From the NCBI GenBank assembly GCA_965226795.1, contig CBDDDZ010000005.1, forward strand, positions 1,504,001-1,568,000: a stretch of DNA of 64,000 bases, in the 5' to 3' direction. The DNA comes from Candidatus Latescibacterota bacterium. GTDB lineage: Bacteria > Latescibacterota > UBA2968 > GCA-2709665. Both the position numbers and the translations under genes were made by a program. Shown one piece after another: positions 26,441 through 50,680 of the stretch. Position 1 is the first letter of the stretch; every line of letters starts with the position of its first letter. The notes below the pieces were generated by a model, which ran no database searches, had not been told where the DNA came from, and was given only the letters and a program-made list of their open reading frames with translations.

Positions 26441-27331
26441 ATGCGTATTACCGCGACGGGTTTAACGAAAATCTATCAAAAGGGGACCGCGCCTGCGCTG
26501 GACAACGTGGATCTGGAAATCGGACAGGTTACATTCGGGCTCCTGGGACCGAACGGTGCCGGAAAAACCACGCTCATCAAAATTCTTTCAACCCAAATGG
26601 CGCCAACAGCCGGCCAGGTAAGAATCGGTGCATGGGATCTGCAGCGCAACCGTTCCGAAGTGCGCCGGAGGTTGGGTTATCTTCCTCAGCACTTCGGGGC
26701 GTATCCGCAACTGACGGCGTGGGAGTTTCTGGATTATATGGACCGGCTCGCTGCCGGGCGCCGTCGGAGCGGGAGAAGGGCGCGGGTGCGGGATGCTTTG
26801 GATAACGTGGGGCTCTACGATGCGCGGAACCGTCGGACCGGCACGTTTTCCGGGGGAATGATGCGGCGGCTCGGCATTGCGCAGGCCATTGTGGGTGATC
26901 CTGCAATCCTGATTGTGGACGAGCCCACCGTGGGCCTCGATCCGGAAGAACGCATCCGTTTTCGGGGGATCCTCGCCCGGATGAGCCGGGATCGGGCTAT
27001 CTTGATTTCCACCCATATTGTTGGCGATATTTCGAGTACCTGCGATGATCTGGCCGTGCTGAATGCCGGACGGATCGTTTACAGGGGCTCGCCCGCGACG
27101 TTGGTTGCTCGCGCGAATGGCAAGACCTGGCGCGTACAGGCGGACGACGCCGGTTTCGAAAAGATCTCCAGAAGTTTTCTGGTTGTGACGGTCGCCGTGG
27201 ACGGTGGCCGGATGGATCTTCGGATCGTGGGCGATGGCCAACCACCCGGCAACGCGGAACCGGTTTCACCGAATCTCGAAGATGCGTATGTCTATTTTAT
27301 GGGTATGGAAAATCTGGAAAGGGCGGCGTGA
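26441..27331 (+). CDS. ABC transporter ATP-binding protein (ABC-2 type)
   Basis: GPNGAGKT, LPQ, FSGGM, IVDEPT, STH. Confidence 0.95.
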   Translation: MRITATGLTKIYQKGTAPALDNVDLEIGQVTFGLLGPNGAGKTTLIKILSTQMAPTAGQVRIGAWDLQRNRSEVRRRLGYLPQHFGAYPQLTAWEFLDYMDRLAAGRRRSGRRARVRDALDNVGLYDARNRRTGTFSGGMMRRLGIAQAIVGDPAILIVDEPTVGLDPEERIRFRGILARMSRDRAILISTHIVGDISSTCDDLAVLNAGRIVYRGSPATLVARANGKTWRVQADDAGFEKISRSFLVVTVAVDGGRMDLRIVGDGQPPGNAEPVSPNLEDAYVYFMGMENLERAA

Positions 27332-27343
27332 GTGGCATTGAAC

Positions 27344-30300
27344 ATGGATACGGCTTTCACCATATTTTCGGTCGCCAGATACGAACGCAAATTGCTGATG
27401 CGGACGATCAGATTTCGCATTCTGGGTGGTATTGGCGTGCTTATCCCCGTCGTTCTGGGGGTGGGACTGGCGATCGCGGAAGCCAGAGGCGTTGAATTCG
27501 AGTCTGTCAGCGGAATCGGCGCCTATATGCCCTTTTATGTCTACAGTTTCCTGCAGACCGTCGTGATCGCGTTTATTGTGGGGGATTTCCGCGCCGCGGA
27601 TGAGCGCGCCGGGATCTATGAGGTGGTTGCAGCCCGGCCGCTGTCAACGGCCGAATTGGTCATGGGCAAATACCTGGGTGTTCTGGGCGCACTGACCACA
27701 CTCAGCCTGGTTGTGCTCGTGCTCAGCCTGGGCGTACACGCAGCCAAAATCAGCATTACCGGCGCGCCGTTTACCATTCGGCCCTACCTTGCGTACTGGC
27801 TGCTGCTGAACCTGCCCGGGCTTGTTTACATGTCCGCGCTTACGTTTTTCCTTGGGGCGGTGTTGCGCCGACAGGCTGCAGTGACCGTGCTCGTTGTCGC
27901 GTATGTCGTGATTGTGCTCTTGTTCCTGGGGCGCAGATATGGCGGCATTTTCGATTTCGGCGCATTCTTCGCACCCGTGTTCTATTCGGATATGCTCGGT
28001 CTTGGCGATATCCGACGGGTGGTGGAGATCCGGTTCTTCTACATGATGCTTGCCCTGTTTTTCTTCGGTCTGTCAATCGACCGGTATCCGCGTCTGCCAC
28101 AATCACGCCCCTGGCGCAGGTTTGGCCGATGTCTGACCGCCGCCGGTCTCGTCGCCGCGCTGGCCCTGTACGTGTATATGGAAAGTCGGGACTCTGCCGA
28201 CCTCGAATACAGGATGGCGCAGTTGGAAATCCAGGAAAGATATGCCGATTGGCCTGCCGTGGAAGTTACGCATTACACGCTCGACCTGGATCTGGCAGCA
28301 GACCGGACACCCCTACGGGGCAGGGCGGTTCTGAACGTCTTGAACCCTCATCCCGTGCGGCTGGATACCCTCGTTTTCAGTCTCAACCCGGGATTGAAAT
28401 TGCGGTCTGTAAGCGCAAAGCAGGCAACGGACGTTGCTGTCAACTGGCGTCGCGAATACGCTACCGTGCAGGTCGCGCGACCACTTCAACCCGATAGTCT
28501 GGCGACACTCGTGTTTGTGTACGACGGATCGATTGACCTCAGCGGATTCGATCTCAGGCGACATCCTGATACAAGACGCTTGCAGAAGAGGCGCGCCGGG
28601 CCGGGGAGAAAGGGTGATCTTACCGCCTGGATTCGCCGCAATTCCGTTTTCCTGCCGCCACGCAGCAGGTGGTATCCCTCACCGGGCGTGGACTACGGGC
28701 ATCGGGATGGCAGACCCGTTTCCTTCGCCACTGCAGATCTCAATATTTCTCTTCCCGCCGGGCTGGAAGTTGTGACCCAGGGTGTACCGGTTAACCGGGA
28801 GCCAACGGGAAGACGTGAGATTCATACATGGAAAGTGGAGCGCCCTGTACCTGTTTTTTCACTCAACGCTGGCGTCTATCGTGTCTATCAGGCCGAAATC
28901 CACGACATCGAATGTGCTATCTACGTGCATCCGTCCCATGCAAAACAGGTCACCTTCTTCGAAGACGCCAGGGACGACGCCCTCAATACACTTGGCGAAA
29001 TTCTGGATAGTGTTGAACAGGAAACCAGCCTGGCCTACCCTTACGAGCGTCTATCTGTGGTGGAGGTGCCATTCCAGGTGCAATGGTATTACGACGGATG
29101 GGAGGAAGCAGGAGGATTGGTGCAGCCAGGTGTGCTGATGCTGGAAGAGGATGTCCTGATGCGGTTGAGGCTGGGACAGCGGCTGAAGTGGATGCAGCGA
29201 CGGCAACGGCAAAACGACGATCCTGCGAGAATCAAGCGCGATTTGCTGGTCAGCACGATCCTTAACACGTTTCTCGCGAGCGAATCGTCTCAGAGTGGGA
29301 TATACCGGAGTCCTGTTGCGCAACTCTGGTCGTTCAACAAAGGATTCGAAGGCGAACACTATTCGCTGTTAAAGCGCGGTATGCCAATCTATATGCAGAA
29401 ACATCTCGGTACCAATCTGCAACAGACGTTCTACTCGCGACGTGGGCGGTTTCGGGGGCGGTTCAGGCGCGACAGGGGCGGGAGTGGCGTCTCCTGGGAT
29501 ACGTTAACGGCCATGATGCGGCAGCGTTCCTTCGCGGAACTGGACCCGAATGCAGATGCGGAACTCTACCGGGCAGTCGTCGATGCCAAGGGCGCGTCCC
29601 TGTTCGGCATGATGCAGGCTGTGGTGGGAGACGATGCATTCAGAGATGTAATAAGCGGATTCGAGGAGGCGAATCGACACATCGGAGTCGACTTCGCTTC
29701 GTTTGAGAGGGCGGCTGTCGGCGATTCCTCGGGTGGGGTGAACGGACCCGACCTGAATCGCCTGGTCCGAGACTGGCTGCACAATACCCATGTGCCGGGG
29801 TACACACTGACACGGGCAAAAGCATATAAAGTCGACGACGGGTGGGGGATGATGACGTATCAGATCATCGTGCGGATCCGGAACGGGGAGCCCGGGCGCG
29901 GGTTCGTTCAGATTCGAGCGTTGGGCACCGAGGACGAGGCGGTAAAAGGAGTCGAGATAGAGGGCGGGCAGGAAGTCGAGGTGGGGTTGATCCTTTGGGA
30001 GCGGCCCTCTAGGATAAGTATCGAGCCTTTTTTTGCACGCAACCGCCGCATCCTGATGGCGCCGCTGCGCATACCCGAGCAGCCGATGGACGGATCCGCC
30101 ACGACTTACGTGAGGGAGGTTTCCCCGGATGAGACCGGATTGACCGAAATAATCGTGGACAACGATGACGAAGGCTTCGAGATGCCGGTCCGCAGGGTGC
30201 GCCGTTATCTTCGACCGCAGTTGAAGGGCGACAACTGGCAGGAACGCCAGTTGCCGTTTTCTTTCGGACGGTATGAGAACAATTTCCGTTGGAAGAAACC

Positions 30301-30718
30301 TGGCGACGGCGCGCAACCGGCCGTTTGGACCGCCCGTTTGCCCCACAGCGGGGATTACGACGTCTACTATTATTTCCTTTCTCCCAGGTTCTCGAAGCGT
30401 CTGCGTATGGCATCGGAATTCAATCTGGCCGTCTGCCACGGTGGCCAGGTGGATACGCTGACGGTGGAAGCACACGAACTGAAGGCGGGCTGGAACGTCC
30501 TGGGACGTTACCGGTTCGAGGGTGGGGAATTGGCCCGTGTCGAATTGTCCGACCGTGCCAACGGCCGGCTGTACGCCGACGCGGTGCGCTGGAGGTACGT
30601 AGACCCTGACCATCCGGAGGACGTATACGAAGAGGAACTTCCCACCTGGAACTTCGGCGGCGGCGGCCGCAGGGGTGACCGGGGAGGGCGTGGACAAAGC
30701 CGCGGAGGACGATGGTAA
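27344..30718 (+). CDS. ABC-2 permease fused to an M1-aminopeptidase-like ectodomain (no HExxH) and a golvesin-like C-terminal domain
   Basis: N-terminal TM helices 'ARPLS..LVMGKYLG'; M1-like 'YPYERLSVVEVP', 'KGASLF', 'DWL'; C-terminal 'IIVDNDDEGF..GDYDVY..GWNVLGRY.F..YADAVRW'. Confidence 0.75.
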   Translation: MDTAFTIFSVARYERKLLMRTIRFRILGGIGVLIPVVLGVGLAIAEARGVEFESVSGIGAYMPFYVYSFLQTVVIAFIVGDFRAADERAGIYEVVAARPLSTAELVMGKYLGVLGALTTLSLVVLVLSLGVHAAKISITGAPFTIRPYLAYWLLLNLPGLVYMSALTFFLGAVLRRQAAVTVLVVAYVVIVLLFLGRRYGGIFDFGAFFAPVFYSDMLGLGDIRRVVEIRFFYMMLALFFFGLSIDRYPRLPQSRPWRRFGRCLTAAGLVAALALYVYMESRDSADLEYRMAQLEIQERYADWPAVEVTHYTLDLDLAADRTPLRGRAVLNVLNPHPVRLDTLVFSLNPGLKLRSVSAKQATDVAVNWRREYATVQVARPLQPDSLATLVFVYDGSIDLSGFDLRRHPDTRRLQKRRAGPGRKGDLTAWIRRNSVFLPPRSRWYPSPGVDYGHRDGRPVSFATADLNISLPAGLEVVTQGVPVNREPTGRREIHTWKVERPVPVFSLNAGVYRVYQAEIHDIECAIYVHPSHAKQVTFFEDARDDALNTLGEILDSVEQETSLAYPYERLSVVEVPFQVQWYYDGWEEAGGLVQPGVLMLEEDVLMRLRLGQRLKWMQRRQRQNDDPARIKRDLLVSTILNTFLASESSQSGIYRSPVAQLWSFNKGFEGEHYSLLKRGMPIYMQKHLGTNLQQTFYSRRGRFRGRFRRDRGGSGVSWDTLTAMMRQRSFAELDPNADAELYRAVVDAKGASLFGMMQAVVGDDAFRDVISGFEEANRHIGVDFASFERAAVGDSSGGVNGPDLNRLVRDWLHNTHVPGYTLTRAKAYKVDDGWGMMTYQIIVRIRNGEPGRGFVQIRALGTEDEAVKGVEIEGGQEVEVGLILWERPSRISIEPFFARNRRILMAPLRIPEQPMDGSATTYVREVSPDETGLTEIIVDNDDEGFEMPVRRVRRYLRPQLKGDNWQERQLPFSFGRYENNFRWKKPGDGAQPAVWTARLPHSGDYDVYYYFLSPRFSKRLRMASEFNLAVCHGGQVDTLTVEAHELKAGWNVLGRYRFEGGELARVELSDRANGRLYADAVRWRYVDPDHPEDVYEEELPTWNFGGGGRRGDRGGRGQSRGGRW

Positions 30719-32035: not shown

Positions 32036-32256
32036 ATGGCAACAGTTCAATACGATGTGCTGAAGTGCCTGCAAAAAGCAGCAAATGTCGAATCTCTGGC
32101 GATCCAAGAGGGCCCTTCGGTCAAAGAGATGGCCGACCTCCTCCATCTGGATACGGATCAGATCCGCGGCGCGATCGGGGGCTCCGGGCAAAAGGATATG
32201 ACATCCGAAACCATCCCCGGCGCAGCGGCCATTTTGTATTATTTGGCTATCCGTGA
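32036..32256 (+). pseudogene. small winged-HTH (BirA/HTH_11-like) protein, frameshifted at the G-run 32177-32181
   Basis: 'SVKEMADLLHLDTDQIRGAI' continues as 'LRAKGYDIRN..HFVL' in another frame; one added G joins them. Confidence 0.5.
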
Positions 32257-32642
32257 TCTCCGGATCCCAACTCAACGTGGATGCTGAACCAGGTGAAAGA
32301 CTGACCGCGAGCGTTGAGTTCTAAAGATTTCATTTCGCCCGCTGCCAGGTCGACACGAGGGGTGGGCCCGAGTTCGACGCCGTTCGACAGATGGATCTCA
32401 ACCCGGACCTGGGAGACTTTGGCGTTTGTGGTATTCCTGACCGTGCCGGCGAACACCTTACGGTCACTGTCATATCTGGCGACCAGTTCGACGCCGCTGC
32501 GAACCTCTTTGGCGGTCTCTGAGATATTATACCTCTTGCCTGATTCGCCCGCCTCGGCGGGTTCCGTAGGACCTGCCGAACATGCACCAACTGCAACGAC
32601 GAACACTGCCACAGCATAACAGCAAAAAGCCTGAATCGACAT
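32247..32642 (-). CDS. small lipoprotein with an Ig-like (FxLYD-like) domain
   Basis: AGGAGGAAGGAG RBS; hydrophobic signal ending VGAC; 'GTVRNTT..VRVEIHL..LAAGE'. Confidence 0.7.
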   Translation of the reverse strand: MSIQAFCCYAVAVFVVAVGACSAGPTEPAEAGESGKRYNISETAKEVRSGVELVARYDSDRKVFAGTVRNTTNAKVSQVRVEIHLSNGVELGPTPRVDLAAGEMKSLELNARGQSFTWFSIHVELGSGDHG

Positions 32643-35700: not shown

Positions 35701-35851
35701 GGCGGTGGGGGTCGGCGAGGGCGCCCGTTTACGGGCACCGATGGCTGTGGCGGTTATCGGCGGGTTGGTGACCTCCACACTGATGACTCTGGTGGTGATT
35801 CCCGTCGTTTACGAATTGATCGAACGGCTTAGAATCAGGAGGGCGTCGTGA
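32768..35851 (+). CDS. AcrB/AcrD/AcrF-family RND permease
   Basis: PVTV..LLP, GMLVDNAIVVIENI, FESLLHP, RLRPILMT. Confidence 0.95.
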   Translation: MSLPEFSTKYPVTVAMATLAVALLGWISLERLDVDLLPDLHSPVITVDLRFPGKTPREMEERYAQRLEGDIGTVRHVKRVHSVSRSGQAVVIAEFEWDADMDFALLDVQKKVGRYAADPDITSLDVTQEDPQALPVMRLAVSGADWQDPDELLGSVETIIRPKLEGFSGVASVEIEGGAEKEIHVTLDSYLLQAFGVNSETVVSRIREANSDVSGGTLKDGQRSYLVKGMGRLNDLKDVNNLVVGESRGGTANGQEDAPAERVPVMVGDVGTVALRYKERETIVRLDGVECVGLSIYKEAGANTSSVVNGVLQELGSLEADLAGIRFTVVENQARFVESAVNEVEEAAILGALLAVGVLLAVLRQWTATLVIGLAIPISVLATFTLMYFQGLTLNVMTLGGLALGAGMLVDNAIVVIENIYRHLERGETAAEASVKGASEVGVAILASTLTTVSVFLPIVYLHGLAGELFKEQAWTVAFSLISSLVVAMTIVPMLTARLFGRYRRRSARVAGSVAFNRFLSGSLNYKGRTMAVLFACLLAAFYMARSIHTSFIPREDEGVLHVDLALPEGTRLESTDRVARRVAAITQAVAGQEARHIYLRVGNDPNRLTAVGEPTGPNRAELTVVLTQRTDRRSVSELTAALDTAIREVPDIKANYRLQKAALEGIIRGNAAPVQVEVSGENLELLRELTADLKRRMEALPTVYNVRTSFQDGQPEVDVVLRPDITAAFGLTSQNLVRELERRLAGEEAGELSKDQRARTIRVRFEDVDFRELKHTRIDGPDGAMLTLGDLADLRVVQGPREILRDGQRRVGRVSAYLTEGVVLGQAATQIRQAVGQMAIPHGYRVTVTGEERERAESFGGLQFALILSVVLVYMVMASLFESLLHPFTVMLSVPLAGIGVVFAFWSLGEAFGIMAFIGVIMLGGIAVNDAIILVDRINQLRHDTGDLRQAVLQGAQDRLRPILMTSATTILALLPMAVGVGEGARLRAPMAVAVIGGLVTSTLMTLVVIPVVYELIERLRIRRAS

Positions 35852-38800
35852 TTCTCCCCGACCTTGCGGTCAGGCGGCCGGTGACGACGTCCATGTTCTT
35901 CGCTGCATTCGCCATATTGGGCGTCGTGTCGTGGACCCGGCTTCCGGTACAGCTCTTTCCGGAGCTGATTTTCCCGGAAGTTTTCGTCACACTCTCGCTG
36001 CAGGGTGCCTCTCCGGAACAGATCGAAAGGGATCTGGTAATTCCCGCCGAAGGGGAGATCGGCAAGCTGGACGGGGTCCAGGAGATGGAGTCATTCGCTA
36101 TGGCCAATAGGGGTGGTATCAGAATAGCCTATGCTCCGGACGTGGATATGAAATTCGCCCTGCTTCAGCTACAAAGCAACCTGAACAGATTGCAGCCAAC
36201 GCTGCCCGAACGTACGCAAACCGATGTACGAAGATTCGATTCGGCAGATCTGAGCAGCAGCATCATGGAACTCCACGTGCTTGCCGATTGGGATCTGAAC
36301 CAGCTCCGGGAGTTCACGGAGGAAAACATCCGCCCCGAATTGGAGTCTGTCGACGGTGTTGTGGATGTATCGGTTATGGGTGGGCGGCGCAGCGCCGTGG
36401 AAATCGTTCTGGATCCGTTTCTGCTGGAAGCGCACGGCCTTTCGACCGGAGAGGTACGAGGACGCCTGAATAGTTATAATCAGCGACGGGAGTATCTGGG
36501 CCGCGTATACGACGGGAATCGGGCCTACTCGGTGAGCATTCAGGGACAGTTTACGGACCTGCGACAGATTCGGAATCTGGTGTTAAACGCGGAGGGCACA
36601 CTCCGACTGGGCGACGTTTCGCGGGTGGGATACGGACTTCAGGAACAGGCCGACCGCCACCGAGTCAATGGCAAACCTTCGGTGGGGGTGCGAATCCAGA
36701 AGGACGACGAAGCGAACCTGATCGAAGTGGCCACCGCGGTAGAAGCGGCCATTGGACAGCTGAATCGCAATTTCAAGAGCGACGGCGTGGAACTGGGCGT
36801 GAGTTCGTCTCAGGCGGATCTGATGACCGGGGCGCTTTCGACCCTGAAACAGGCGGCCATAATTGGTGCTGTCCTCGGCATGATCGTGCTCTTTCTGTTT
36901 CTTCGGAACCTTCGTTTTGTCTCGGTCCTCCTGCTCGCCATTCCGGTTTCTCTCCTGATGACCTTCAATCTGATGTACCTGGGAGGGTTATCCGTCAACG
37001 TGCTGTCTCTTTGCGGCCTGGCCCTCGCAATGGGAATGCTTGCGGACAACGGCATTGTGGTGATGGAGAATATCTTCAAGCATTACGAGCGTGGAAAATC
37101 GCCCGCCCAGGCGGCGCGGGACGGGGCGGCCGAGGTTGGTCGTGCGGTGGTCGCGGCAACCGCAACCACGGTAACGGCTTTCTTGCCCGTTCTATTTATC
37201 GAAAGCGACGCGCGGGATCTGCTGCGTGAGCTCGCATTGTCCATGGCGTTTCCGCTAATGGCCTCACTGCTGGTAGCGCTGACGCTCGTTCCTGCCCTTG
37301 CCGTCCGGGCGTTGAGCCGCGAGGTCCGACAACCGCCTGACGTCCGCGGCTTGCTGGAACAGTATACACTACTGTTGAAGGCCGCTCTACGGCATCGCGC
37401 ATCGGTTGCCCTGACCGTAGGGTGCGCCCTCGTGCTGACACTCGTCGTGGCCTTCTTCTATCTGCTCCAGCAACAGGTGCGGAGAGAGGAGACGCGATTT
37501 ACGGTTTACGTGAACCTGCCGGACGGGGCCACGCTGGATGCCACCGACGAGGTCGTGAAGCAGGTGGAAGAATCTGTGCGGGACGTGCCCGGCCTGGATC
37601 GGTTTACGACGTCGGTGCAGGAGGCCGAAGCCAATGTTACTGTCCTGTTGAGAAAGCGTTCTGACCGGCCCGGCGACATCTCGCTGGATGAAATAAAGGA
37701 ACAACTCGACGAAAAAATGCAGAACGTGCAGGGAGGTGTGGTAGGATACGAACCCAGGCCTCGGGCGGGAAGGGGCGGGCGCGGGCAGGGGATAGGACAG
37801 CGTCGGAGGCGCAGCTCCGGCGGATTCGATCTGACAGGGGCAACGCCGAACGAGCAGGCCGTGGTTCGAGGTTACGATTTTACGATACTGACGATGATTG
37901 CCAACGACTTGGTGTACCGCCTTGAGGAACTCGAAGAGGTGGATGCCAACAGCGTACGCGCTGACGCCGAACGGAGTTCGCCTGAGGTTCAGGTGATTCC
38001 CGATGCGGCGTCCCTGTTCGACCGGCGGCTTGGGGCGAGGGAGGTCCTGGCCGCCCTGGGAGACACGCGTTGGGACGGATTCCGCTCCACCGTACCGTTT
38101 CTGCTGCCCGACGCAACCGAGATACCTATCGAAGTGCGGACGTTTGAAGAGGAGGACCGGGACCGTTACGGGCTGGCTGAATTAAAACGCTCCCGTGTTC
38201 TCAACCAGGACGGTCAGTACGTGTCTCTGGACGAAGTTGCGCGGGTTCGAACGGACGAGGGCAGGAGCAGCCTGTTGAGGACCGACCAGGCCCGCCGGAT
38301 CGTGGTTTCCTACCGGTTTCCGTCGGAAATTCTGGATTCACAACCGCGGTTGGATATTGCGAGACGGGTCGTGAGGACGACACTGCAGGATATGGTGCTG
38401 CCGGAGGGCTATTCGATTGAAAACATTGAGGCGCACGAGGAGACGATTTACTATTGGATGATCGGAATTGCCGCGGTGCTCATCTACATGATTCTGGCCT
38501 CGCTGTTTGAATCTTTCGCCTCTCCGATAATCATTCTATGTACGCTGCCGCCTGCGGCCATCGGCTCGTGTTGGGCGCTGATGATGTCGGGCACGGGCCT
38601 GAGCCAGCAGGAAGGGCCCATGGCGCTGCTGGGCTTTGTTGTCCTTTTGGGTATTGCCGTGAATAACGGGATTATCCTGATAGATGCGGTCGGCGTGCTC
38701 AGGTCCCGATTCGGATTTCGCCGGGAACGCGCAGTTTTGACGGCGGCAAGGTCCCGTGTGCGACCCATATTGATGACGACGGCCACAACGCTTCTGGGTG

Positions 38801-40560
38801 TTCTTCCGCTCGCGCTGGAATTCGGTGGTGATTTCGAAATCTGGCCGCCGTTCGCAATTACCGTTCTCGGTGGATTGTCTGTTTCCATGGTGTCCACATT
38901 GATCCTGATTCCGGTGGTTTACATGGGGCTGGATCAGATCGGAACATGGCTGGCTGACCTGGGCATTGTCGGCGTCGTGCTCTCCCTGCTGGCTACCGTA
39001 GCGGCTGGCTATGGTGTATATACCCGGTATGAAAGTGTTTTCTGGGCCGCGCTGTCGATATTGCCCATCTGGGGCGGGTTCTTGACTGCGGTGTGGATCG
39101 TACTGAAGGTCCATCGCGCTCGGGTCGCCGTCCGCCGCGCGTCGAGCGCCGTATTTTCCATTCAGCTGAGGAACCTGACCAAAATCTACGGCGCATCCGG
39201 GAGTTTTGGCCGGGAATGGGCGCGCAACGAACGTCGGAAAGGGCGGTTGATGAAAACAGGGCTGGATCCGCAGGACCGCAAGCCGGTTCGTGATGCGCTC
39301 TTATGGAAGCTGCCGTTGCTCGCACTGCTGATGTTTTTCACGACCTATTTCGAGGACGAAATCTGGATCTATCTGCACGGATTGGCACTGGCATTTATGC
39401 TTGGCCACATGGGTCGATGTTTCGGCGACCTCTGGCGGGAACATCTGTCGTCGCCGGCCGAACGTATCGGAGAAATTCTGTACAAAGTCGTTTTGCCACT
39501 GGGATTTATGGCTTATGTGCACTTGCAGCTGAATTTGCTTTCCGTCACCATTGCTACTTTCGGCTTGTGGGCCGCCTATCGACTGGCACGATGGCTCGCC
39601 GACAGGGTGCGAGCGGGCGTGGTAACCCCCGATGAACTATTCGGACGTTTTGTACGGGCGCGTAGATGGTTTTATCGGATGGCATCGGCCATACCCCTCG
39701 TCGGTGTTCCCCAGCCTGAATTTCGGGCGCTGGCGGGCGTCAACCTGGAAATCGGCAGAGGAATGTTCGGTCTTCTGGGACCCAATGGCGCCGGTAAGAC
39801 CACGTTGATGCGTATTCTTTGTCGGGTCCTCGAGCCCAGCTACGGGTCGATCCTTTTCGACGGTCGAAACATCCTGCGGAAAGGTTCGATCCACGGCCTG
39901 ATCGGGTATCTTCCGCAGCACTTCGGCAACTACGGACACCTCTCCGCGCACGAATTCCTGGAATACCGGGCGCTGCTCGAAGGCTTTAAGGACCGTAAGA
40001 CTCGCGAGTCACGGGTGATCGAATCCCTGGAACAGGTAAATCTGATCGAACGCATGGAAGATCCCATCGGGTCGTTCTCAGGGGGAATGAAGCAGCGCCT
40101 TGGTATCGCGCAGACCCTGCTGCACACCCCGCAAGTCGTGGTTGTGGATGAGCCCACAGCAGGGCTCGATCCACTGGAGCGTATCCGGTTTCGTAATCTG
40201 CTCGCCCGGTTGAGCCAGGATCGGATCGTCATTTTCTCCACGCACATCGTGGAAGATATCTCTGGAAGCTGCAATCGACTGGCGGTACTGGATCAGGGGC
40301 GTCTTCTTTATACCGGAACGCCGGGGGAGATGAGAAATCAGGCGGAGGGACGGGTGTGGGATGCGATGGTTTCGGAACAGCGCTTTTCCGAGTTGGAAGA
40401 AAAACTGAAGCTCGTATCGCACCAGCGGACGTCAGACGGGGTCAAAATGCGATTCCTGTCTGAACGTCCACCGGTTGGGTTCGGCGCACAAAGCGTGGAT
40501 CCAACCCTGGAAGACGCGTATCTGTACCTACTCGGTGCAGGAAAGGACAAGACGTGCTGA
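35848..40560 (+). CDS. AcrB-family RND permease fused to extra TM helices and a C-terminal ABC ATPase
   Basis: RND motifs GMLADNGIVVMENI and RVRPILMT, then GPNGAGKT, LPQ, FSGGMKQR, VVDEPT and STH in one 1570-aa frame. Confidence 0.92.
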   Translation: MILPDLAVRRPVTTSMFFAAFAILGVVSWTRLPVQLFPELIFPEVFVTLSLQGASPEQIERDLVIPAEGEIGKLDGVQEMESFAMANRGGIRIAYAPDVDMKFALLQLQSNLNRLQPTLPERTQTDVRRFDSADLSSSIMELHVLADWDLNQLREFTEENIRPELESVDGVVDVSVMGGRRSAVEIVLDPFLLEAHGLSTGEVRGRLNSYNQRREYLGRVYDGNRAYSVSIQGQFTDLRQIRNLVLNAEGTLRLGDVSRVGYGLQEQADRHRVNGKPSVGVRIQKDDEANLIEVATAVEAAIGQLNRNFKSDGVELGVSSSQADLMTGALSTLKQAAIIGAVLGMIVLFLFLRNLRFVSVLLLAIPVSLLMTFNLMYLGGLSVNVLSLCGLALAMGMLADNGIVVMENIFKHYERGKSPAQAARDGAAEVGRAVVAATATTVTAFLPVLFIESDARDLLRELALSMAFPLMASLLVALTLVPALAVRALSREVRQPPDVRGLLEQYTLLLKAALRHRASVALTVGCALVLTLVVAFFYLLQQQVRREETRFTVYVNLPDGATLDATDEVVKQVEESVRDVPGLDRFTTSVQEAEANVTVLLRKRSDRPGDISLDEIKEQLDEKMQNVQGGVVGYEPRPRAGRGGRGQGIGQRRRRSSGGFDLTGATPNEQAVVRGYDFTILTMIANDLVYRLEELEEVDANSVRADAERSSPEVQVIPDAASLFDRRLGAREVLAALGDTRWDGFRSTVPFLLPDATEIPIEVRTFEEEDRDRYGLAELKRSRVLNQDGQYVSLDEVARVRTDEGRSSLLRTDQARRIVVSYRFPSEILDSQPRLDIARRVVRTTLQDMVLPEGYSIENIEAHEETIYYWMIGIAAVLIYMILASLFESFASPIIILCTLPPAAIGSCWALMMSGTGLSQQEGPMALLGFVVLLGIAVNNGIILIDAVGVLRSRFGFRRERAVLTAARSRVRPILMTTATTLLGVLPLALEFGGDFEIWPPFAITVLGGLSVSMVSTLILIPVVYMGLDQIGTWLADLGIVGVVLSLLATVAAGYGVYTRYESVFWAALSILPIWGGFLTAVWIVLKVHRARVAVRRASSAVFSIQLRNLTKIYGASGSFGREWARNERRKGRLMKTGLDPQDRKPVRDALLWKLPLLALLMFFTTYFEDEIWIYLHGLALAFMLGHMGRCFGDLWREHLSSPAERIGEILYKVVLPLGFMAYVHLQLNLLSVTIATFGLWAAYRLARWLADRVRAGVVTPDELFGRFVRARRWFYRMASAIPLVGVPQPEFRALAGVNLEIGRGMFGLLGPNGAGKTTLMRILCRVLEPSYGSILFDGRNILRKGSIHGLIGYLPQHFGNYGHLSAHEFLEYRALLEGFKDRKTRESRVIESLEQVNLIERMEDPIGSFSGGMKQRLGIAQTLLHTPQVVVVDEPTAGLDPLERIRFRNLLARLSQDRIVIFSTHIVEDISGSCNRLAVLDQGRLLYTGTPGEMRNQAEGRVWDAMVSEQRFSELEEKLKLVSHQRTSDGVKMRFLSERPPVGFGAQSVDPTLEDAYLYLLGAGKDKTC

Positions 40561-41276
40561 ACTGGCGGGAATTGCTGCTGGCCACGTGGCGGCTCTATCG
40601 GCTTAGCTGCAGGATCATATTTCATAGGAAATTGATGTTCATGGCCATTGGCGTTTTTGCATATTACGCAGCCATGTATGCATTTGCAGTCTGGCGCCCC
40701 GACGAAGGATTCGGCGTATCGCGGGCGCTCAATGTTCTGGTTGAAATTCCTGGTATCGCACTGGCCATTTATCTGACGATGGATCTCGTTGCAGCCGAAC
40801 GAGATAGAAATACACTGGAGACGTTGTTCAGTACAGCCTCATCCCACTATAAGATATGGGCGATCCGGATGGTCGGGGTTTATGTGGTGTTGGCGGGAAC
40901 CCTGATGGGAATGACGGTTGTCGCCTATTTTGTTTTCGCGGAATTGCCGGTCTTCAGGGGTGGGCTGAATGCCATTCTGCCGGCGTGTTTTGCCGCAGGC
41001 CTCACTTTTTATTTTTCCGTTCTCTGTCGAAGCGGAAATGCGGCCGCGATGCTCGCTACGGGAGTGATGGGCCTGACTCTGTTCATCTCGGAATCCATGC
41101 CCGACTCACCCTTCGCGCTTTTTCTGAGTACGTTTGATCCCCCGGTGGGAATGGAAGACACCCTGTGGGGCGACCAGGTGCTTCTGAATCGCCTGGCTGT
41201 ACTATTGCTGTCGGGCCTGCTGCTTTTTATGGGCCTCCGCAAGATGGAAGCCAGGGAGCGATTGGTATCTTCGTAG
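40554..41276 (+). CDS. ABC-2 type permease
   Basis: About 6 TM segments; 'ERDRNTLETLFS' loop; overlaps the stop codon of the upstream gene. Confidence 0.75.
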   Translation: MLNWRELLLATWRLYRLSCRIIFHRKLMFMAIGVFAYYAAMYAFAVWRPDEGFGVSRALNVLVEIPGIALAIYLTMDLVAAERDRNTLETLFSTASSHYKIWAIRMVGVYVVLAGTLMGMTVVAYFVFAELPVFRGGLNAILPACFAAGLTFYFSVLCRSGNAAAMLATGVMGLTLFISESMPDSPFALFLSTFDPPVGMEDTLWGDQVLLNRLAVLLLSGLLLFMGLRKMEARERLVSS

Positions 41277-41381
41277 CGGTGTGTGATCCCGCTCCGGATG
41301 AACCCATTGCGCTCCTCTTCAGGTTGGACACCTCACCAACAAGGGGTGCGAGATTCCGGCCGGAATTCTCGCCCGCCCATC

Positions 41382-42524
41382 CTATTCTTTGCGAACATCC
41401 AGCCGGATCTTACGGGGTTCTACGTTTACGACCGTGAGGTCCGTCCCGTGTTTTATCGACTCGACGCCGACCTCGAAGGTTCTTCGTCCGAACCTGACGT
41501 AGGCCGCATCGATCGCGAGTCGAAAGTCGTTCACAGGCGCCAGCAGAAGGGCGCGTCGCGGCCCCTTCACGGTTACGTTTGCAACGCCCGGTCTGACGCC
41601 CTCCAGTTTATAGCCACGTGGTAGATTCTCCACTTCGACCTCCACCTCGTACGTTGTTTCCTGGACCGCCGCACCCGGTACCAAAAACACCCATGCGCCG
41701 AACGCCAGCGCGAAGGAGAGCAGCCCTTCAGCGAAATGCCTCGCCAGCCAGCCCCGACCGGTCCTCGGCGCGCTGGCGATCACGTGCTGCGCATGCTCCT
41801 GTAGCCTGGCGAGCAGTTCGTCTGGATCGTCTATAATCTCCAGTCGACCCTGCCGCGCGACCGCGATGGTGCCGCGCTCCTCGGAGACCACAAGGCACAG
41901 GGCGTCGCTACGCTCGGCCAGCCCCAGTGCCGCAGCGTGGCGTGTGCCGCCCGGCCCGAGTTCTCCTCGGTTGTCCGAAAGCGGCAGATATACGGCGAAT
42001 CGTTCCAGCCTGTTTTCCCTCATAACCAGAGCCCCGTCGTGGCCGGCCGACGTCGTGGCGAACAGGCTGTCGATAAGTTCCTCGCTGATGGTCGCCTGCA
42101 GTACGATTCCGCCTTGCAGAAGCCGATCCAGCGGCTCGCGTCCGGGCAGAACCACCAGGGCGCCCCGCCGCTTTTCCGCCAACTGATGCATCGCCCGGAC
42201 CAGCACCGCCAGACTCCCGCCGCGGGGTCCCGATACCCTTCTGCCCAGGCCGAGTGCGGCAATCCGCTCAAAAAGGCGTCGGAGGTCGTCCTGAAAGACA
42301 ACAACAAGCAGCACAACCAGGACCGCAAAAAATCCCTGGAAGATCCACGCCGTCAGTTGCAGTTCGAATTGCCGCGCCAGCAGATAGAAGGCGCCCAGAA
42401 AGGCCAGCCCGATGAGCGCCATTCGGGCGTGCATCTTCCGAGTCCAGGCCAACAGGCCCCAGAACAGAACACTCACGACCGCTATGTCCACAAAATCGGT
42501 AAATGCAATCTCGAGTAGCGTCAT
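41382..42524 (-). CDS. cdaA: membrane-bound diadenylate cyclase with a C-terminal YbbR/CdaR-like domain
   Basis: Three N-terminal TMs, 'VVFQDDLRR', HDGA, GTRHAAALGL, VSEERG; the C-terminal 'VENLP..P..ANVTVKGPR' is YbbR-like. Confidence 0.85.
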   Translation of the reverse strand: MTLLEIAFTDFVDIAVVSVLFWGLLAWTRKMHARMALIGLAFLGAFYLLARQFELQLTAWIFQGFFAVLVVLLVVVFQDDLRRLFERIAALGLGRRVSGPRGGSLAVLVRAMHQLAEKRRGALVVLPGREPLDRLLQGGIVLQATISEELIDSLFATTSAGHDGALVMRENRLERFAVYLPLSDNRGELGPGGTRHAAALGLAERSDALCLVVSEERGTIAVARQGRLEIIDDPDELLARLQEHAQHVIASAPRTGRGWLARHFAEGLLSFALAFGAWVFLVPGAAVQETTYEVEVEVENLPRGYKLEGVRPGVANVTVKGPRRALLLAPVNDFRLAIDAAYVRFGRRTFEVGVESIKHGTDLTVVNVEPRKIRLDVRKE

Positions 42525-42839
42525 ATCCGTAGGTTTCCCGGCTGCCGGATTCAGTTGTTGGAGGGGGCGAGCGTGCCCAACGATGCGGGTATGCCTGCAG
42601 ACCCGAAATATGGGCAATCTTTCACATTTCGTCAAGACCGCACCGGATCATCCCCGCCGGGCCGGTGAACGCCGATCGGGGTCCCGGGCGGCCGGATTAA
42701 AGACCCTCTAGGGCGGTTCCGCGGATCTCGTCTTTCGTTTGGCCAGTCCTGGGAAAATGCCTATATTTAATATCATTCAGGGACAACCGTAAATGGACAT
42801 CTGTTTATCTGACGCTGTTTTTGGACGGAGGAGAGCGAT

Positions 42840-47582: not shown

Positions 47583-49148
47583 GAGCCTGTCGGAGTACGT
47601 GTGGTTAAAGAGTTGAATACAGTGTCGATAGGCGGAATGAGCGGTGGATGGAGCGTCAAGGCGAGTTGCGGTGTCGTCCTATGCGGGATTGGGCAGCCAG
47701 TTCAGCCTGTCGAGCTTCAAGAGGTTGTGCGTAATGCAGATGAGGTTCCATTCTGCGGTAACTTTTTTAAGACCTCTGAAGGTGAAGCGGTCGAGGCGGC
47801 GAAGTTGTTTGATCTGTCCGAACACGGGTTCAACGATATGCTTTCTCTTTGCGTAGGTGCATCGACCCTTGATTGTACGTAGCTTTCTGGCCATTCTTTC
47901 CTTGGGCGTTGCGTTTTTGGGTATGCGGCCACGTGGAGACTTGGGGATGGGGTCTGTGTGCTTGTGTTTTTGGGTGGCGATGTAAGTATCGATGCCTTCG
48001 GGGAGACGCTCGATCTGGTGTTGACTGTAGTATCCTGAATCCGCGGTAAGACATTTTGGGTTTTGGCCCGTATGGGTCTTGATCCGCTGTACCATGGATA
48101 CCGTCTGATTTTTGTCGTTGGCGGTCCTGGGTGACGTCGGCTGCAAGGATGATCTGTGCCTTCTCATCAACGGCGGCCTGGCAGTTGTAGGCTTGCACGA
48201 AGGTGCCGCCGGAAACCATAATGCGGGAGTCCGGGTCGGTGAAGTTGCGCTGTCGTTTTGCTTCGGGTTCTTTGGAAGGCGGTTTTGGCTTCTTGCCGGG
48301 GCGCTTGCGATGCTTACGCTTCTTCAATTTGTCTTCGTATGTGGCCTGTTTGTCCGCATACTCAGCCTGTGCTTCGGCTTCTAACTCGGCCATCGCCGCA
48401 CGGATCTTTTCCAGACGCCCTTTCCCGAACGCCCAGCCTTCGGCGGGTTCGTCGCCGCGATTGCCCTTGCCATACAGCGCATCTTCAGCAGCGTCCGTCG
48501 CTTCGGCCTGCGCCAGAAGCCGCTTGACCTCCGCCTCGAGTTCCGACGCCTTCTTCTTCATACGTCCGTAGCTCATCGCTTTGTGCTTCGAGGCGTTCGC
48601 TTTCACTTTGGTACCATCCAGCGCCACGTGCCCAAGTTTTACCAGACCCCCCTTCTGGCAAAGCCCAAGCACCTGTGTGAACATCCCTGACAGGGCGTCA
48701 AGATGCCGTTGACGAAACGCGGATATCGTATCGTGATCAGGATGCTGATCCAATCCCAGCACGCGGAACGCGACAGAGTCATACGTCGCCTGCCTGCTGC
48801 AGGCAGGCAGGCTCTATCTTCCGCGAACTCGTGGATGCCTTCACAGTATGCATATAGCAGCAGACCCACCATCATTCTCGGTTCGTAGGGCGGCTGTCCA
48901 CCCTTCGACCCGTCATACGACCCATATATCGACGACAGATCCAGTTCGCCAACGATGTCCAAAATGAAATACGCCTTATGGTCTTTCGGTAGCCACTCCC
49001 GAAGGTCCGGAGGCAACAGCATCAATTGGTCTGGATGATAATCACGAAAACGCGTCGGAGTGTCCATTACGACCTCAAATTTAGGATGCCTGGTGGCGAC
49101 ACTCCTATTATAAGAAATTTTCATCCAATAGGGTACTCCGACAGACTT
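47583..49148 (-). mobile_element. IS1182-family insertion sequence with frameshifted transposase
   Basis: 16-bp terminal IRs gagcctgtcggagtac / gtactccgacagactt (14/16), each flanked by CTAG; transposase motifs 'LLPPDLREWLP', 'ALDGTKVKANASKHK', 'TDPDSRIM', 'ADSGY', 'VEPVFGQIK' lie in three frames. Confidence 0.92.
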
Positions 49149-49152
49149 CTAG

Positions 49153-50680
49153 CCTGAAAAGTTCACAAAAAAGGTAGTTTCCTTACCCAAGTTCGTATTA
49201 TAGTGGTTACGCAAATAACCATAACACAATGAGGAGGCAACTACCGGAGTTCAAGATACACATCACAGGGTGTCTTTCGCAAGTCTTTCTGGTGCCGGTA
49301 GAAGCCACCTTCGACGGAGGCATCCGACCAGCGACAGCGGGGTGATGCTGCTTCGTGAGGTGGAGGCCAGAACCGGGATTTTGCATAGGATGGTTGCGGC
49401 GCTCACGGATCGTCGACATCAAAGTTACGTACATCATCAGATGATGGATCTGGTCAAACAACGTGTGTTTCAGATGGCCTGTGGATATGAGGACGCGAAC
49501 GATTGCAATACGTTGCGCGAGGATCCCGGCTTCAAGGCGGCCTGTGATCGGTTGCCGCTTTCCGGTGCGGATCTGGCCAGTCAACCCACGATGAGTCGGT
49601 TCGAGAACCGGATCAGCAGAACCGATTTGTATCGGATCGCCAAGGCCTTTGCGGATGTGTTTGTCGCCTCGTATGAGGAACCGCCCGAAGCCATTCTGTT
49701 GGATATCGATGACACGGAAGACAAGGTGTATGGGTCTCAACAGTTGTCGTTGTTCAATGCGATGGCTATTGCTACCAGCCCCTGCATATCTATGAAGGCC
49801 AGACGGGCGATCACGACGGTCTTGCGTCCTGGCAGGCGGCCCACGGGTAAAGAGATCGTCACCATTCTCAAACGGGTGATCGCCTAAATCCTGTTGCGCG
49901 GCGATGCTCATTTTTCGTGTCCGGAATGCACGCGTTGTGTGAAGACCTCCTCGGACAAAACGGCAACGACTGCTGCGCTCGGCACAGTCCTTTAGACCAG
50001 GCCAAAACGCTGTATGCCGCTTCGGGAAAACCCGTGCGCCTTTATCGCTGTTGTCAGGCGAAAACCTGGGCTTGTCCACAACGCATCATCTGCAAGGCGG
50101 AAGTATATCCGATTCGTGGTCACCATAAAGCGCGCCCAACCGTCATTCATCTACAAAACCGCCTATTGCGCACGCGGCAGGATGGAAAACTTCATGAATC
50201 ACAAGATTCCGATCCACCTCTTGTCACATCTTCCAGGCCAATCACTTCCGTCTCTTTCTCCACAGCGCCGCCTATGTCCTGATGACGCCTTGGCACAAAC
50301 CGGGTTGCGCGGCACGAAGTGGACGAACGCACAGTTCAATACCCTGCAAAAGGAGTCGCCGGGCCGTTTGTGAGTTGAAAACAAAAATCAGGTTCCATCT
50401 GCCAACCGACCTTTATCGCAAGATCCTCTACAACCTGGCAACGTGTGTTCCAAAATCGTCGAGCTGACCGCGCCTTCACGTTTGGACCGACACGACCAAC
50501 AGCCACGGAGACGTCTGTGCTCTTGACAGGAATTCAGAGCAAGCTGACGCCACGGAGCAAACGTGCTGCCAGCAGGCGCCGCCGACACGGCCTGGACAGA
50601 TCCGTCTCAGCCCGTGCTCTTTCGGTCTCACTCGGAAGCTCTTTCTGCTTCCTCATACTGCATTCCGTGACGGAAGCTAG
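49153..50680 (+). mobile_element. heavily decayed IS1380-family element
   Basis: 'FDGG..TSDSGVMLLREVE', 'GYEDANDCNTLREDP', 'LASQPTMSRFEN', 'LDIDDT', 'YCARGRMEN'; many indels; ends approximate. Confidence 0.8.

Follow-up and report, generated by a model that had tools for sequence, protein, structure and literature searches.

An ABC ATPase fused to an RND subunit and split between its first two strands by predicted membrane helices

A 1570-residue protein encoded by a single open reading frame (35848-40560, + strand) of a Candidatus Latescibacterota genome joins an AcrB-type RND subunit to an ABC ATPase whose first β-strand is set apart from the rest of the domain by a segment that is predicted to contain four membrane helices. 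The split in the ATPase is real and conserved and is confirmed here as an observation. Our preferred interpretation, to which we assign a probability of roughly 0.55, is that of a tethered relay in which the helices of the loop likely hold a complete ABC transporter against an RND trimer. Positions refer throughout to the window, that is, the whole 64,000-nucleotide stretch of DNA that was analysed. Neither the parts nor the insertion site is new, whereas membrane helices at this site and a covalent link between RND and ABC proteins are apparently undescribed; no papers on an RND-ABC fusion or on a membrane insert within an ATPase domain were found among the titles and abstract openings of a mainly open-licence literature, and databases already list the fusion under an automatic two-domain name.

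The RND family model PF00873 covers residues 5-1027 of the protein (E = 5.5e-183, 610.8 bits) and the ABC domain is matched at residues 1297-1438, with a PF00005 score of 94.6 bits versus a cut-off of 25; DrrA and GldA models give the highest scores for this ATPase. Its N-terminal boundary is placed at residue 1297 by Pfam ABC_tran and at residue 1291 by NCBIfam drrA; for the stand-alone paralogue at 26441 models such as GldA cover residue 1 onward. The segments IQLRNLTKIYG (39160-39192, aa 1105-1115) and RALAGVNLEIG (39724-39756, aa 1293-1303), corresponding to strands β1 and β2, lie in the same open frame and are separated by 177 residues, in good agreement with the distance of about 175 codons quoted in the initial annotation of this DNA. 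That annotation had described the two elements as adjacent in the paralogue, which the ORF translation bears out (an ordinary short loop joins them), and the catalytic motifs of the fused ATPase as intact, as is indeed the case from a motif scan and the translation: Walker A, Q-loop, signature, Walker B with its catalytic Glu and H-loop are all found, with a D-loop that reads GLDP. In a set of 163 proteins with long inserts (see below) the signature is retained in 160, the D-loop in 159 and the H-loop in 159, and the Asp-Glu-Pro pattern of Walker B is matched in only 143. The adenine-stacking aromatic site of such ATPases is termed the A-loop. Features and coordinates are collected in Table 1.

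Table 1. Features of the fusion gene and of its operon within the window
Feature	Position	Strand	Evidence or remark
Stand-alone ABC ATPase NBD1, 296 aa, short β1-β2 loop	26441..27331	+	44% identical to fused ATPase
Large permease, 1128 aa: one ABC-2-like membrane domain, M1-aminopeptidase-like domain, Golvesin_C	27332..30718	+	
Periplasmic adaptor (MFP), 376 aa	30712..31842	+	TIGR01730 E 4e-55, above cut-off
Unfused RND subunit RND1, 1027 aa	32768..35851	+	PF00873 E 7e-226
RND domain of fusion protein, aa 1-1027	35848..38928	+	PF00873; top PDB sequence match MdtB 9lyq
Extra predicted membrane hairpin TM13-TM14, aa 1028-1097, after RND domain	38929..39138	+	Model helices H3-36, H39-72; hydropathy 1.6-1.8
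ATPase strand β1, ending in A-loop tyrosine Y1114	39160..39189	+	Conservation; in superpositions E79-89 takes the place of the first strand in intact ATPases
Insert of 178 aa (aa 1115-1292), running from a basic helix through two hairpins predicted to be in the membrane to a basic return helix	39190..39723	+	
Remaining ABC ATPase: β2, Walker A, Q-loop, signature, Walker B, D-loop, H-loop, C-terminal domain	39724..40560	+	DrrA/GldA-like
Small permease, 240 aa, ABC-2-like, predicted partner of fused ATPase	40554..41276	+	

A search with residues 1030-1330 recovered 937 relatives among 7993 scored candidates, the best 120 of which are nearly all fusions of RND and ABC domains. In an alignment of 118 rows (A1), drawn by a query that included the β1 strand, a strict β1 motif is located 150-300 residues before Walker A in 117 rows and within 15-60 residues of it in none, so that the alignment of homologues suggested in the initial annotation establishes the split arrangement as a conserved one. 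K1112 is invariant in these rows and Y1114 is conserved to at least 90%. Chance occurrence of the motif is ruled out, since it is found 0 times in the 110,755 residues of the RND parts of the same proteins. Because the query contained the strand, the census was repeated in a manner that is blind to the insert, with the stand-alone ATPase as query. The best 120 of its 1607 matches comprise 57 RND-fused proteins, 58 tandem ATPases and 5 others; the 57 fusions divide into 54 with a long insert (3 of these assignments made by eye), 2 with a medium and 1 with a short insert, and none of the 57 has an ordinary short β1-β2 loop.

The fusion is matched in 84 of the 168 genomes of the phylum. Frameshift, read-through and misassembly are ruled out by the stop-free single frame in all phylum matches and by a contig from a public run, possibly the source of the same DNA, that spans 38500-41300 unbroken with 3 differences and no gaps. 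A profile of the insert module matches 107 clusters among 1.84 billion representatives, and no stand-alone ATPase with a membrane insert is found among them; 102 of the 107 are covered to at least 70% by known fusions and the remaining 5 are apparently fragments, either short or frameshifted. Two RND-less proteins from the blind census start within RND TM12. Contigs in RNA libraries overlap parts of the fusion gene, an overlap that is by itself no sign of transcription, and scans for promoters and terminators gave results at chance level.

The initial annotation had proposed AlphaFold as a means of asking whether IQLRNLTKIY completes the β-sheet of the nucleotide-binding domain (NBD), and an AlphaFold2 model of residues 1026-1570, calculated with 118 sequences (pLDDT 92, pTM 0.81), does place the strand in the sheet. 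Strands are formed by model residues 79-89 and 267-278, along with six long helices, and in structural superpositions every one of the 50 rows shown has its first aligned position at model residue 76-80, opposite the N-terminal residues of the solved ATPase; LptB (6b89_B) superposes with Z 26.7, 220 of 226 residues aligned and rmsd 2.0, and FtsE (8hd0_A) with Z 26.7, 211 of 218 residues aligned and rmsd 1.8. In a second model, of residues 1026-1307 and with the ATPase core left out (pLDDT 93.7, pTM 0.67), β1 and β2 are the sole strands and therefore pair with each other. The models predict that β1 completes the N-terminal antiparallel sheet of the ATPase, including the A-loop aromatic residue, and a domain with β1 back in its sheet would be a normal ATPase in both ATP binding and hydrolysis. 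A mutual-information test for β1-β2 contacts was uninformative. Neither of the two outcomes named at the outset as counter-evidence is seen, as the strand is inside the NBD in the model and the insert is hydrophobic.

The several hydrophobic segments that had been noticed in the intervening stretch amount to four hydrophobic helices with a positive-inside pattern. Over the 118 rows the mean hydropathy of the four segments is 1.35-2.06, close to the values of TM13-14, and the loops predicted to be cytoplasmic carry on average 15.9, 6.2 and 10.4 Lys and Arg residues, the short turns 0.7, 0.1 and 1.2, with segment boundaries in both cases that we have drawn ourselves. A simple window counter applied to 163 long-insert proteins gives 4-5 segments in only 108, three in 46 and fewer in 9. 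The model helices of the insert (aa 1144-1164, 1171-1196, 1202-1228 and 1231-1255) are 21-27 residues long and are linked by short turns that are poor in Lys and Arg. We predict that all four cross the membrane and that the basic loops are cytoplasmic; an even number of crossings means that both strands stay on the cytoplasmic side. One might imagine instead that the helices lie on the surface of the inner membrane, or dip into it without crossing, like an enlarged version of the gate helix discussed below, as their hydrophobic cores are short (13-16 residues with our boundaries), short-insert relatives make use of long basic linkers of a surface type, and the model assigns no membrane position. 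The lengths of the model helices, the nature of the turns that join them and a hydropathy like that of TM13-14 all argue otherwise, and we consider a surface location to be very unlikely.

For the insert of the window's protein there is no Pfam family, and a Pfam scan of 14 inserts returned just four weak single-member matches. A PDB sequence search with the insert gave no match, the ESM Atlas gave no usable match to the insert module and Foldseek none to the membrane module at E <= 0.001. Internal duplication as the origin of the three hairpins is hinted at only by weak profile matches (probability 70%, 71% and 13%), and no homology was detected between the short inserts and the final part of the long one (profile probability 2-4%).

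The size of the insert varies. One of the fetched loci, L013, encodes a 1437-residue fusion with a soluble insert, and a search with this protein recovered its relatives. From a set of 238 proteins, with 3 set aside and 5 unparsed, the 230 remaining fusions fall into classes with short (22-28 aa; 25 proteins), medium (42-58 aa; 42 proteins, one assigned after correction by eye) and long inserts (168-261 aa; 163 proteins). Short and medium inserts are soluble, giving 67 fusions without membrane helices in the loop, and the extra hairpin TM13-14 accompanies the long insert. Among stand-alone ATPases of the fetched loci the β1-β2 loop is minimal in 61 of the 84 for which the strand was found (it was not found in 14); those of L047 and L077 have a loop of 22 residues, the size of a gate helix. 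In a quick tree of ATPases (36 long, 14 medium and 14 short) the fused domains form one group, with support of 96, without resolution of the long class, and a FastTree tree of the RNDs rooted on RND1 has the long class (99) as sister to short plus medium (99). The simplest reading of these sequences is that there was one fusion and subsequently a single gain of the membrane module; the alternative history, in which the membrane helices were lost once, is also admissible. By their source labels, fusions occur in Bacteroidota, Acidobacteriota, Gemmatimonadota, KSB1, Calditrichota, Omnitrophota and Sumerlaeota in addition to half of the 168 genomes of the phylum. A divergent long-insert subgroup (P0186, P0189, P0193, P0203, P0236 and P0238), some members of which are labelled Acidobacteriota, has a long branch and an altered region before Walker A, and in a different type of fusion, P0358 (973 aa), a related ordinary ATPase is fused N-terminally to a permease-like region.

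In the initial annotation the inserted helices were taken to anchor the NBD to the membrane. The insertion of membrane helices into a loop of the NBD stands, with the crossing predicted, but anchoring is unlikely to be its purpose because the ATPase already hangs on the membrane domain of the RND subunit and because the sister fusions do without such helices. Their absence from the sister fusions also means that the helices are not essential to the system, and the soluble inserts of these lineages suggest that the helices elaborate a loop that hosts the gate helix of Wzt and the regulatory insertion of CFTR as well. It is then natural to ask whether the insert could be no more than a passive tether or an aid to assembly, the RND and ABC parts being co-located yet working independently and the helices only stabilizing the join. 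The insert is, no doubt, less conserved than the ATPase core (top-residue frequencies of 0.27-0.57 versus 0.73) and it is replaced by soluble loops of 22-58 residues in the 67 fusions mentioned above. However, the loop is enlarged in every RND-fused ATPase that we examined, as opposed to the minimal loop of most stand-alone enzymes, several residues of the insert are nearly invariant (W1124, W1153, W1173, G1266, Y1276 and P1283), and the long-insert form is one old clade, so that we regard a purely passive role as quite unlikely. The β1-β2 loop of an ATPase, which may be just a few residues long, can evidently reach lengths of 25, 45 or, with membrane helices, ~180 residues while the catalytic motifs are kept, and the three natural sizes provide ready controls for studies of structure and function.

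The topology had been called unusual, which is only partly so: the insertion site is already known from Wzt and CFTR, and it is the predicted membrane helices at this site that are new. In WzmWzt, as described in the excerpted text of PMC6379404, the loop that joins strands 1 and 2 is built as a gate helix; it sits on the membrane surface near the permease interface and shifts by ~8 Å on ATP binding. Like Wzt and TarH, which the excerpt of PMC8386196 places among type V transporters, the fused ATPase has its extension between β1 and β2, directly after the adenine-stacking tyrosine, as judged from our model and from the portion of PMC6379404 cited above. It differs from Wzt, with its short soluble helix, in having 168-261 residues, four predicted membrane helices and an ATPase that is fused to an RND subunit. 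The sequence match of the fusion to 6m96 and 6amx is limited to query residues 266-308, past the insert. A loop that is at the membrane surface and that moves by ~8 Å is one for which growth into the membrane would be geometrically plausible. The regulatory insertion of CFTR NBD1 (residues 404-435) is also between strands 1 and 2, and CFTR severed at this insertion still works with its ATP dependence kept (excerpt of PMC2217481), which argues that β1 tolerates separation from the core. In this case the insertion is ~30 residues in length, flexible and soluble, and it belongs to a eukaryotic channel of type IV.

The RND part of the fusion provides no sign of ATP having replaced protons. The TM4 Asp and the Arg of the TM11 RxRP motif, for which we take R971 to be the AcrB number, are retained in 64 of 64 aligned fused RNDs. 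When AcrB positions are mapped by way of MdtB and MtrD-type alignments the RND of the fusion keeps D400 and the TM11 Arg, and has Asn at the positions of D408 and K940, as do all 36 aligned long-insert proteins. The AcrB-type relay used in this comparison consists of D407, D408, K940 and R971, of which D408 and K940 are from the excerpted text of PMC10924465. The same Asn residues are found in the unfused partner RND1 (23 of 23) and in several unfused RNDs of this genome, so that a lost proton relay as a mark of ATP drive is ruled out. The RND2 subunits of the medium-insert version of the system (L013:6533-10846 and L122:1861-8567), in which the gene order is rearranged, have a different TM10 pattern, Pro-Asn-Ser, with His for Asp. 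Scores for the NCBIfam equivalogs of MdtB and MdtC are far below cut-off (374.5 vs 1774 and 338.4 vs 1584).

These results bear on a reading in which the fused ATPase drives or gates the RND directly, with ATP binding at the A-loop pulling on the helices so as to switch the RND, and with the permeases acting as regulators or sensors. Its appeal lies in the connectivity, β1 being joined to the last helices of the RND on one side and to the insert on the other, in the ~8 Å movement of the Wzt loop at the same site upon ATP binding (excerpt of PMC6379404) and in the two Asn substitutions. We nevertheless judge it unlikely, since the substitutions are shared with unfused RNDs and are no mark of lost proton coupling, CFTR keeps its ATP dependence after removal of most of an insertion at the same site (excerpt of PMC2217481), and the gene is accompanied by a second ATPase and by two ABC-2-like permeases.

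The latter genes form an operon in the order ATPase, large permease, adaptor, RND1, RND2::ATPase and small permease. All six genes, in identical order, are found in 17 of 20 fetched phylum loci, with two of the exceptions cut short and the third, L109, having no adjacent stand-alone ATPase. The small permease is present in 81 of the 168 genomes; all 81 belong to the 84 genomes in which the fusion occurs and none to the other 84 (lists compared by eye), and the three fusion genomes that do not have it are fragmented assemblies, 84-86% complete. The large permease was not found in 5 of 5 tested genomes without the fusion. This co-occurrence is due in part to gene adjacency, and kin genomes are not independent of each other. 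In a medium-insert genome (G168) the order is adaptor, ATPase, small permease, RND1, large permease, fusion and TolC, where adaptor and small permease were identified by eye.

Pfam matches to the large permease include two that are below cut-off, ABC2_membrane_3 (E 1.9e-5) and Peptidase_M1 (E 0.009), along with Golvesin_C (E 3.6e-15). The HExxH motif is found in the M1-like domain of 0 of 20 operon homologues and, judging from sequence, this domain and Golvesin_C are probably a non-catalytic periplasmic binding module. Pfam gives no match to the small permease, for which a weak profile match to the membrane domain of the large permease (probability 64%, 168 columns) and a weak match to the first repeat of a permease from locus L017 (probability 18%) are obtained. 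In the unfused relatives L017 and L019 one ordinary ATPase lies beside a permease that has two repeats in one polypeptide, an arrangement that would be expected were the operon's permeases the two halves of one transporter; in L017 the two repeats are followed by an M1 domain with HExxH, and the large permease of the operon has one repeat and is HExxH-free. These systems resemble the present one in having a related permease with a periplasmic domain of the M1 type and, in L019, an ATPase of the same clade. They differ in that they have one ordinary ATPase, one two-repeat permease and no RND in the fetched loci. No paper on a stand-alone ATPase with such a two-repeat permease/M1-aminopeptidase fusion was found in the literature searched.

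The window's operon has no TolC gene, and six OEP genes are located elsewhere in the genome. A gap of 1.4-1.8 kb precedes the adaptor in nine phylum loci and in the Bacteroidales locus L015, and the gene in it belongs to the TolC family in the three that were scanned; a TolC-family gene is confirmed in these three long-insert loci and in the medium-insert locus L013. The operon is without a TolC-type gene in L093-L099 and L109 (loci from the family and order of this genome plus two class-level loci), and a gene of TolC size is present in the more distant kin L100-L108, L110 and L015.

We propose that the tethered relay would function in the following manner. β1 and the A-loop tyrosine rejoin the sheet of the ATPase, a step that is shown in sequence and predicted in structure. 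The fused ATPase would then pair with NBD1 and both would dock on the small and large permeases, giving a heterotetrameric transporter similar to type V, as the operon and the co-occurrence of its genes suggest. By analogy with MdtB2C, RND1 and the fused RND2 would assemble as a heterotrimer, joined by the adaptor and by a channel of the TolC type, gene adjacency being what is known in the present case; with a single fused subunit in each trimer, every pump would carry one ABC unit. Finally, the ABC unit may move substrate across the inner membrane or extract it from there and pass it to the RND, which would use protons to expel it. The six added helices, from TM13-14 and the insert, would form a spacer within the membrane at the permease interface, where the gate helix of Wzt is located, and may relay the ATP-driven movement of the loop to the pump. 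A stronger version, which we hold only tentatively and at slightly less than even odds, is a seven-component exporter that covalently unites an ABC transporter powered by ATP with an RND-adaptor-TolC pump powered by protons and in which a six-helix module rooted in the A-loop couples the ATP cycle. Were this so, the coupling would be to substrate hand-over or to the RND cycle and this would be the first instance of a pump complex that draws on both energy sources.

Elements of the tethered relay are known separately. In MdtABC-TolC (excerpt of PMC4462101) two distinct RND subunits are likewise encoded side by side with an adaptor, and MdtB is the top PDB match to our RND domain; that system differs in having neither an ATPase fusion nor ABC permeases. 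As in MacAB-TolC and other ABC-driven tripartite pumps (excerpt of PMC8277102), an ATP motor, an adaptor and a TolC-type channel occur together, although there the ABC protein is the sole inner-membrane pump, in place of an RND pair and an ABC set that are covalently linked. RND and ABC proteins have been treated as separate classes of inner-membrane motor, and the fusion makes the notion of two motors in series a testable one.

Several further features of the window were noted. In an unsystematic look through the list of ORFs of the window, the operon has no genes for polysaccharide biosynthesis on either side. A 131-residue ORF on the - strand (32247-32642), between adaptor and RND1, has a lipoprotein-like start and no Pfam match, and in the closest fetched relative there is just a 237-base gap at its position. 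Several overlapping transposase-like ORF pieces, their translations read by eye, are found at 47679-50373. Converging on the end of the operon is a gene for a diadenylate cyclase, CdaA, with a YbbR-like domain (41382-42635, - strand), which is kept in the same-genus locus L093.
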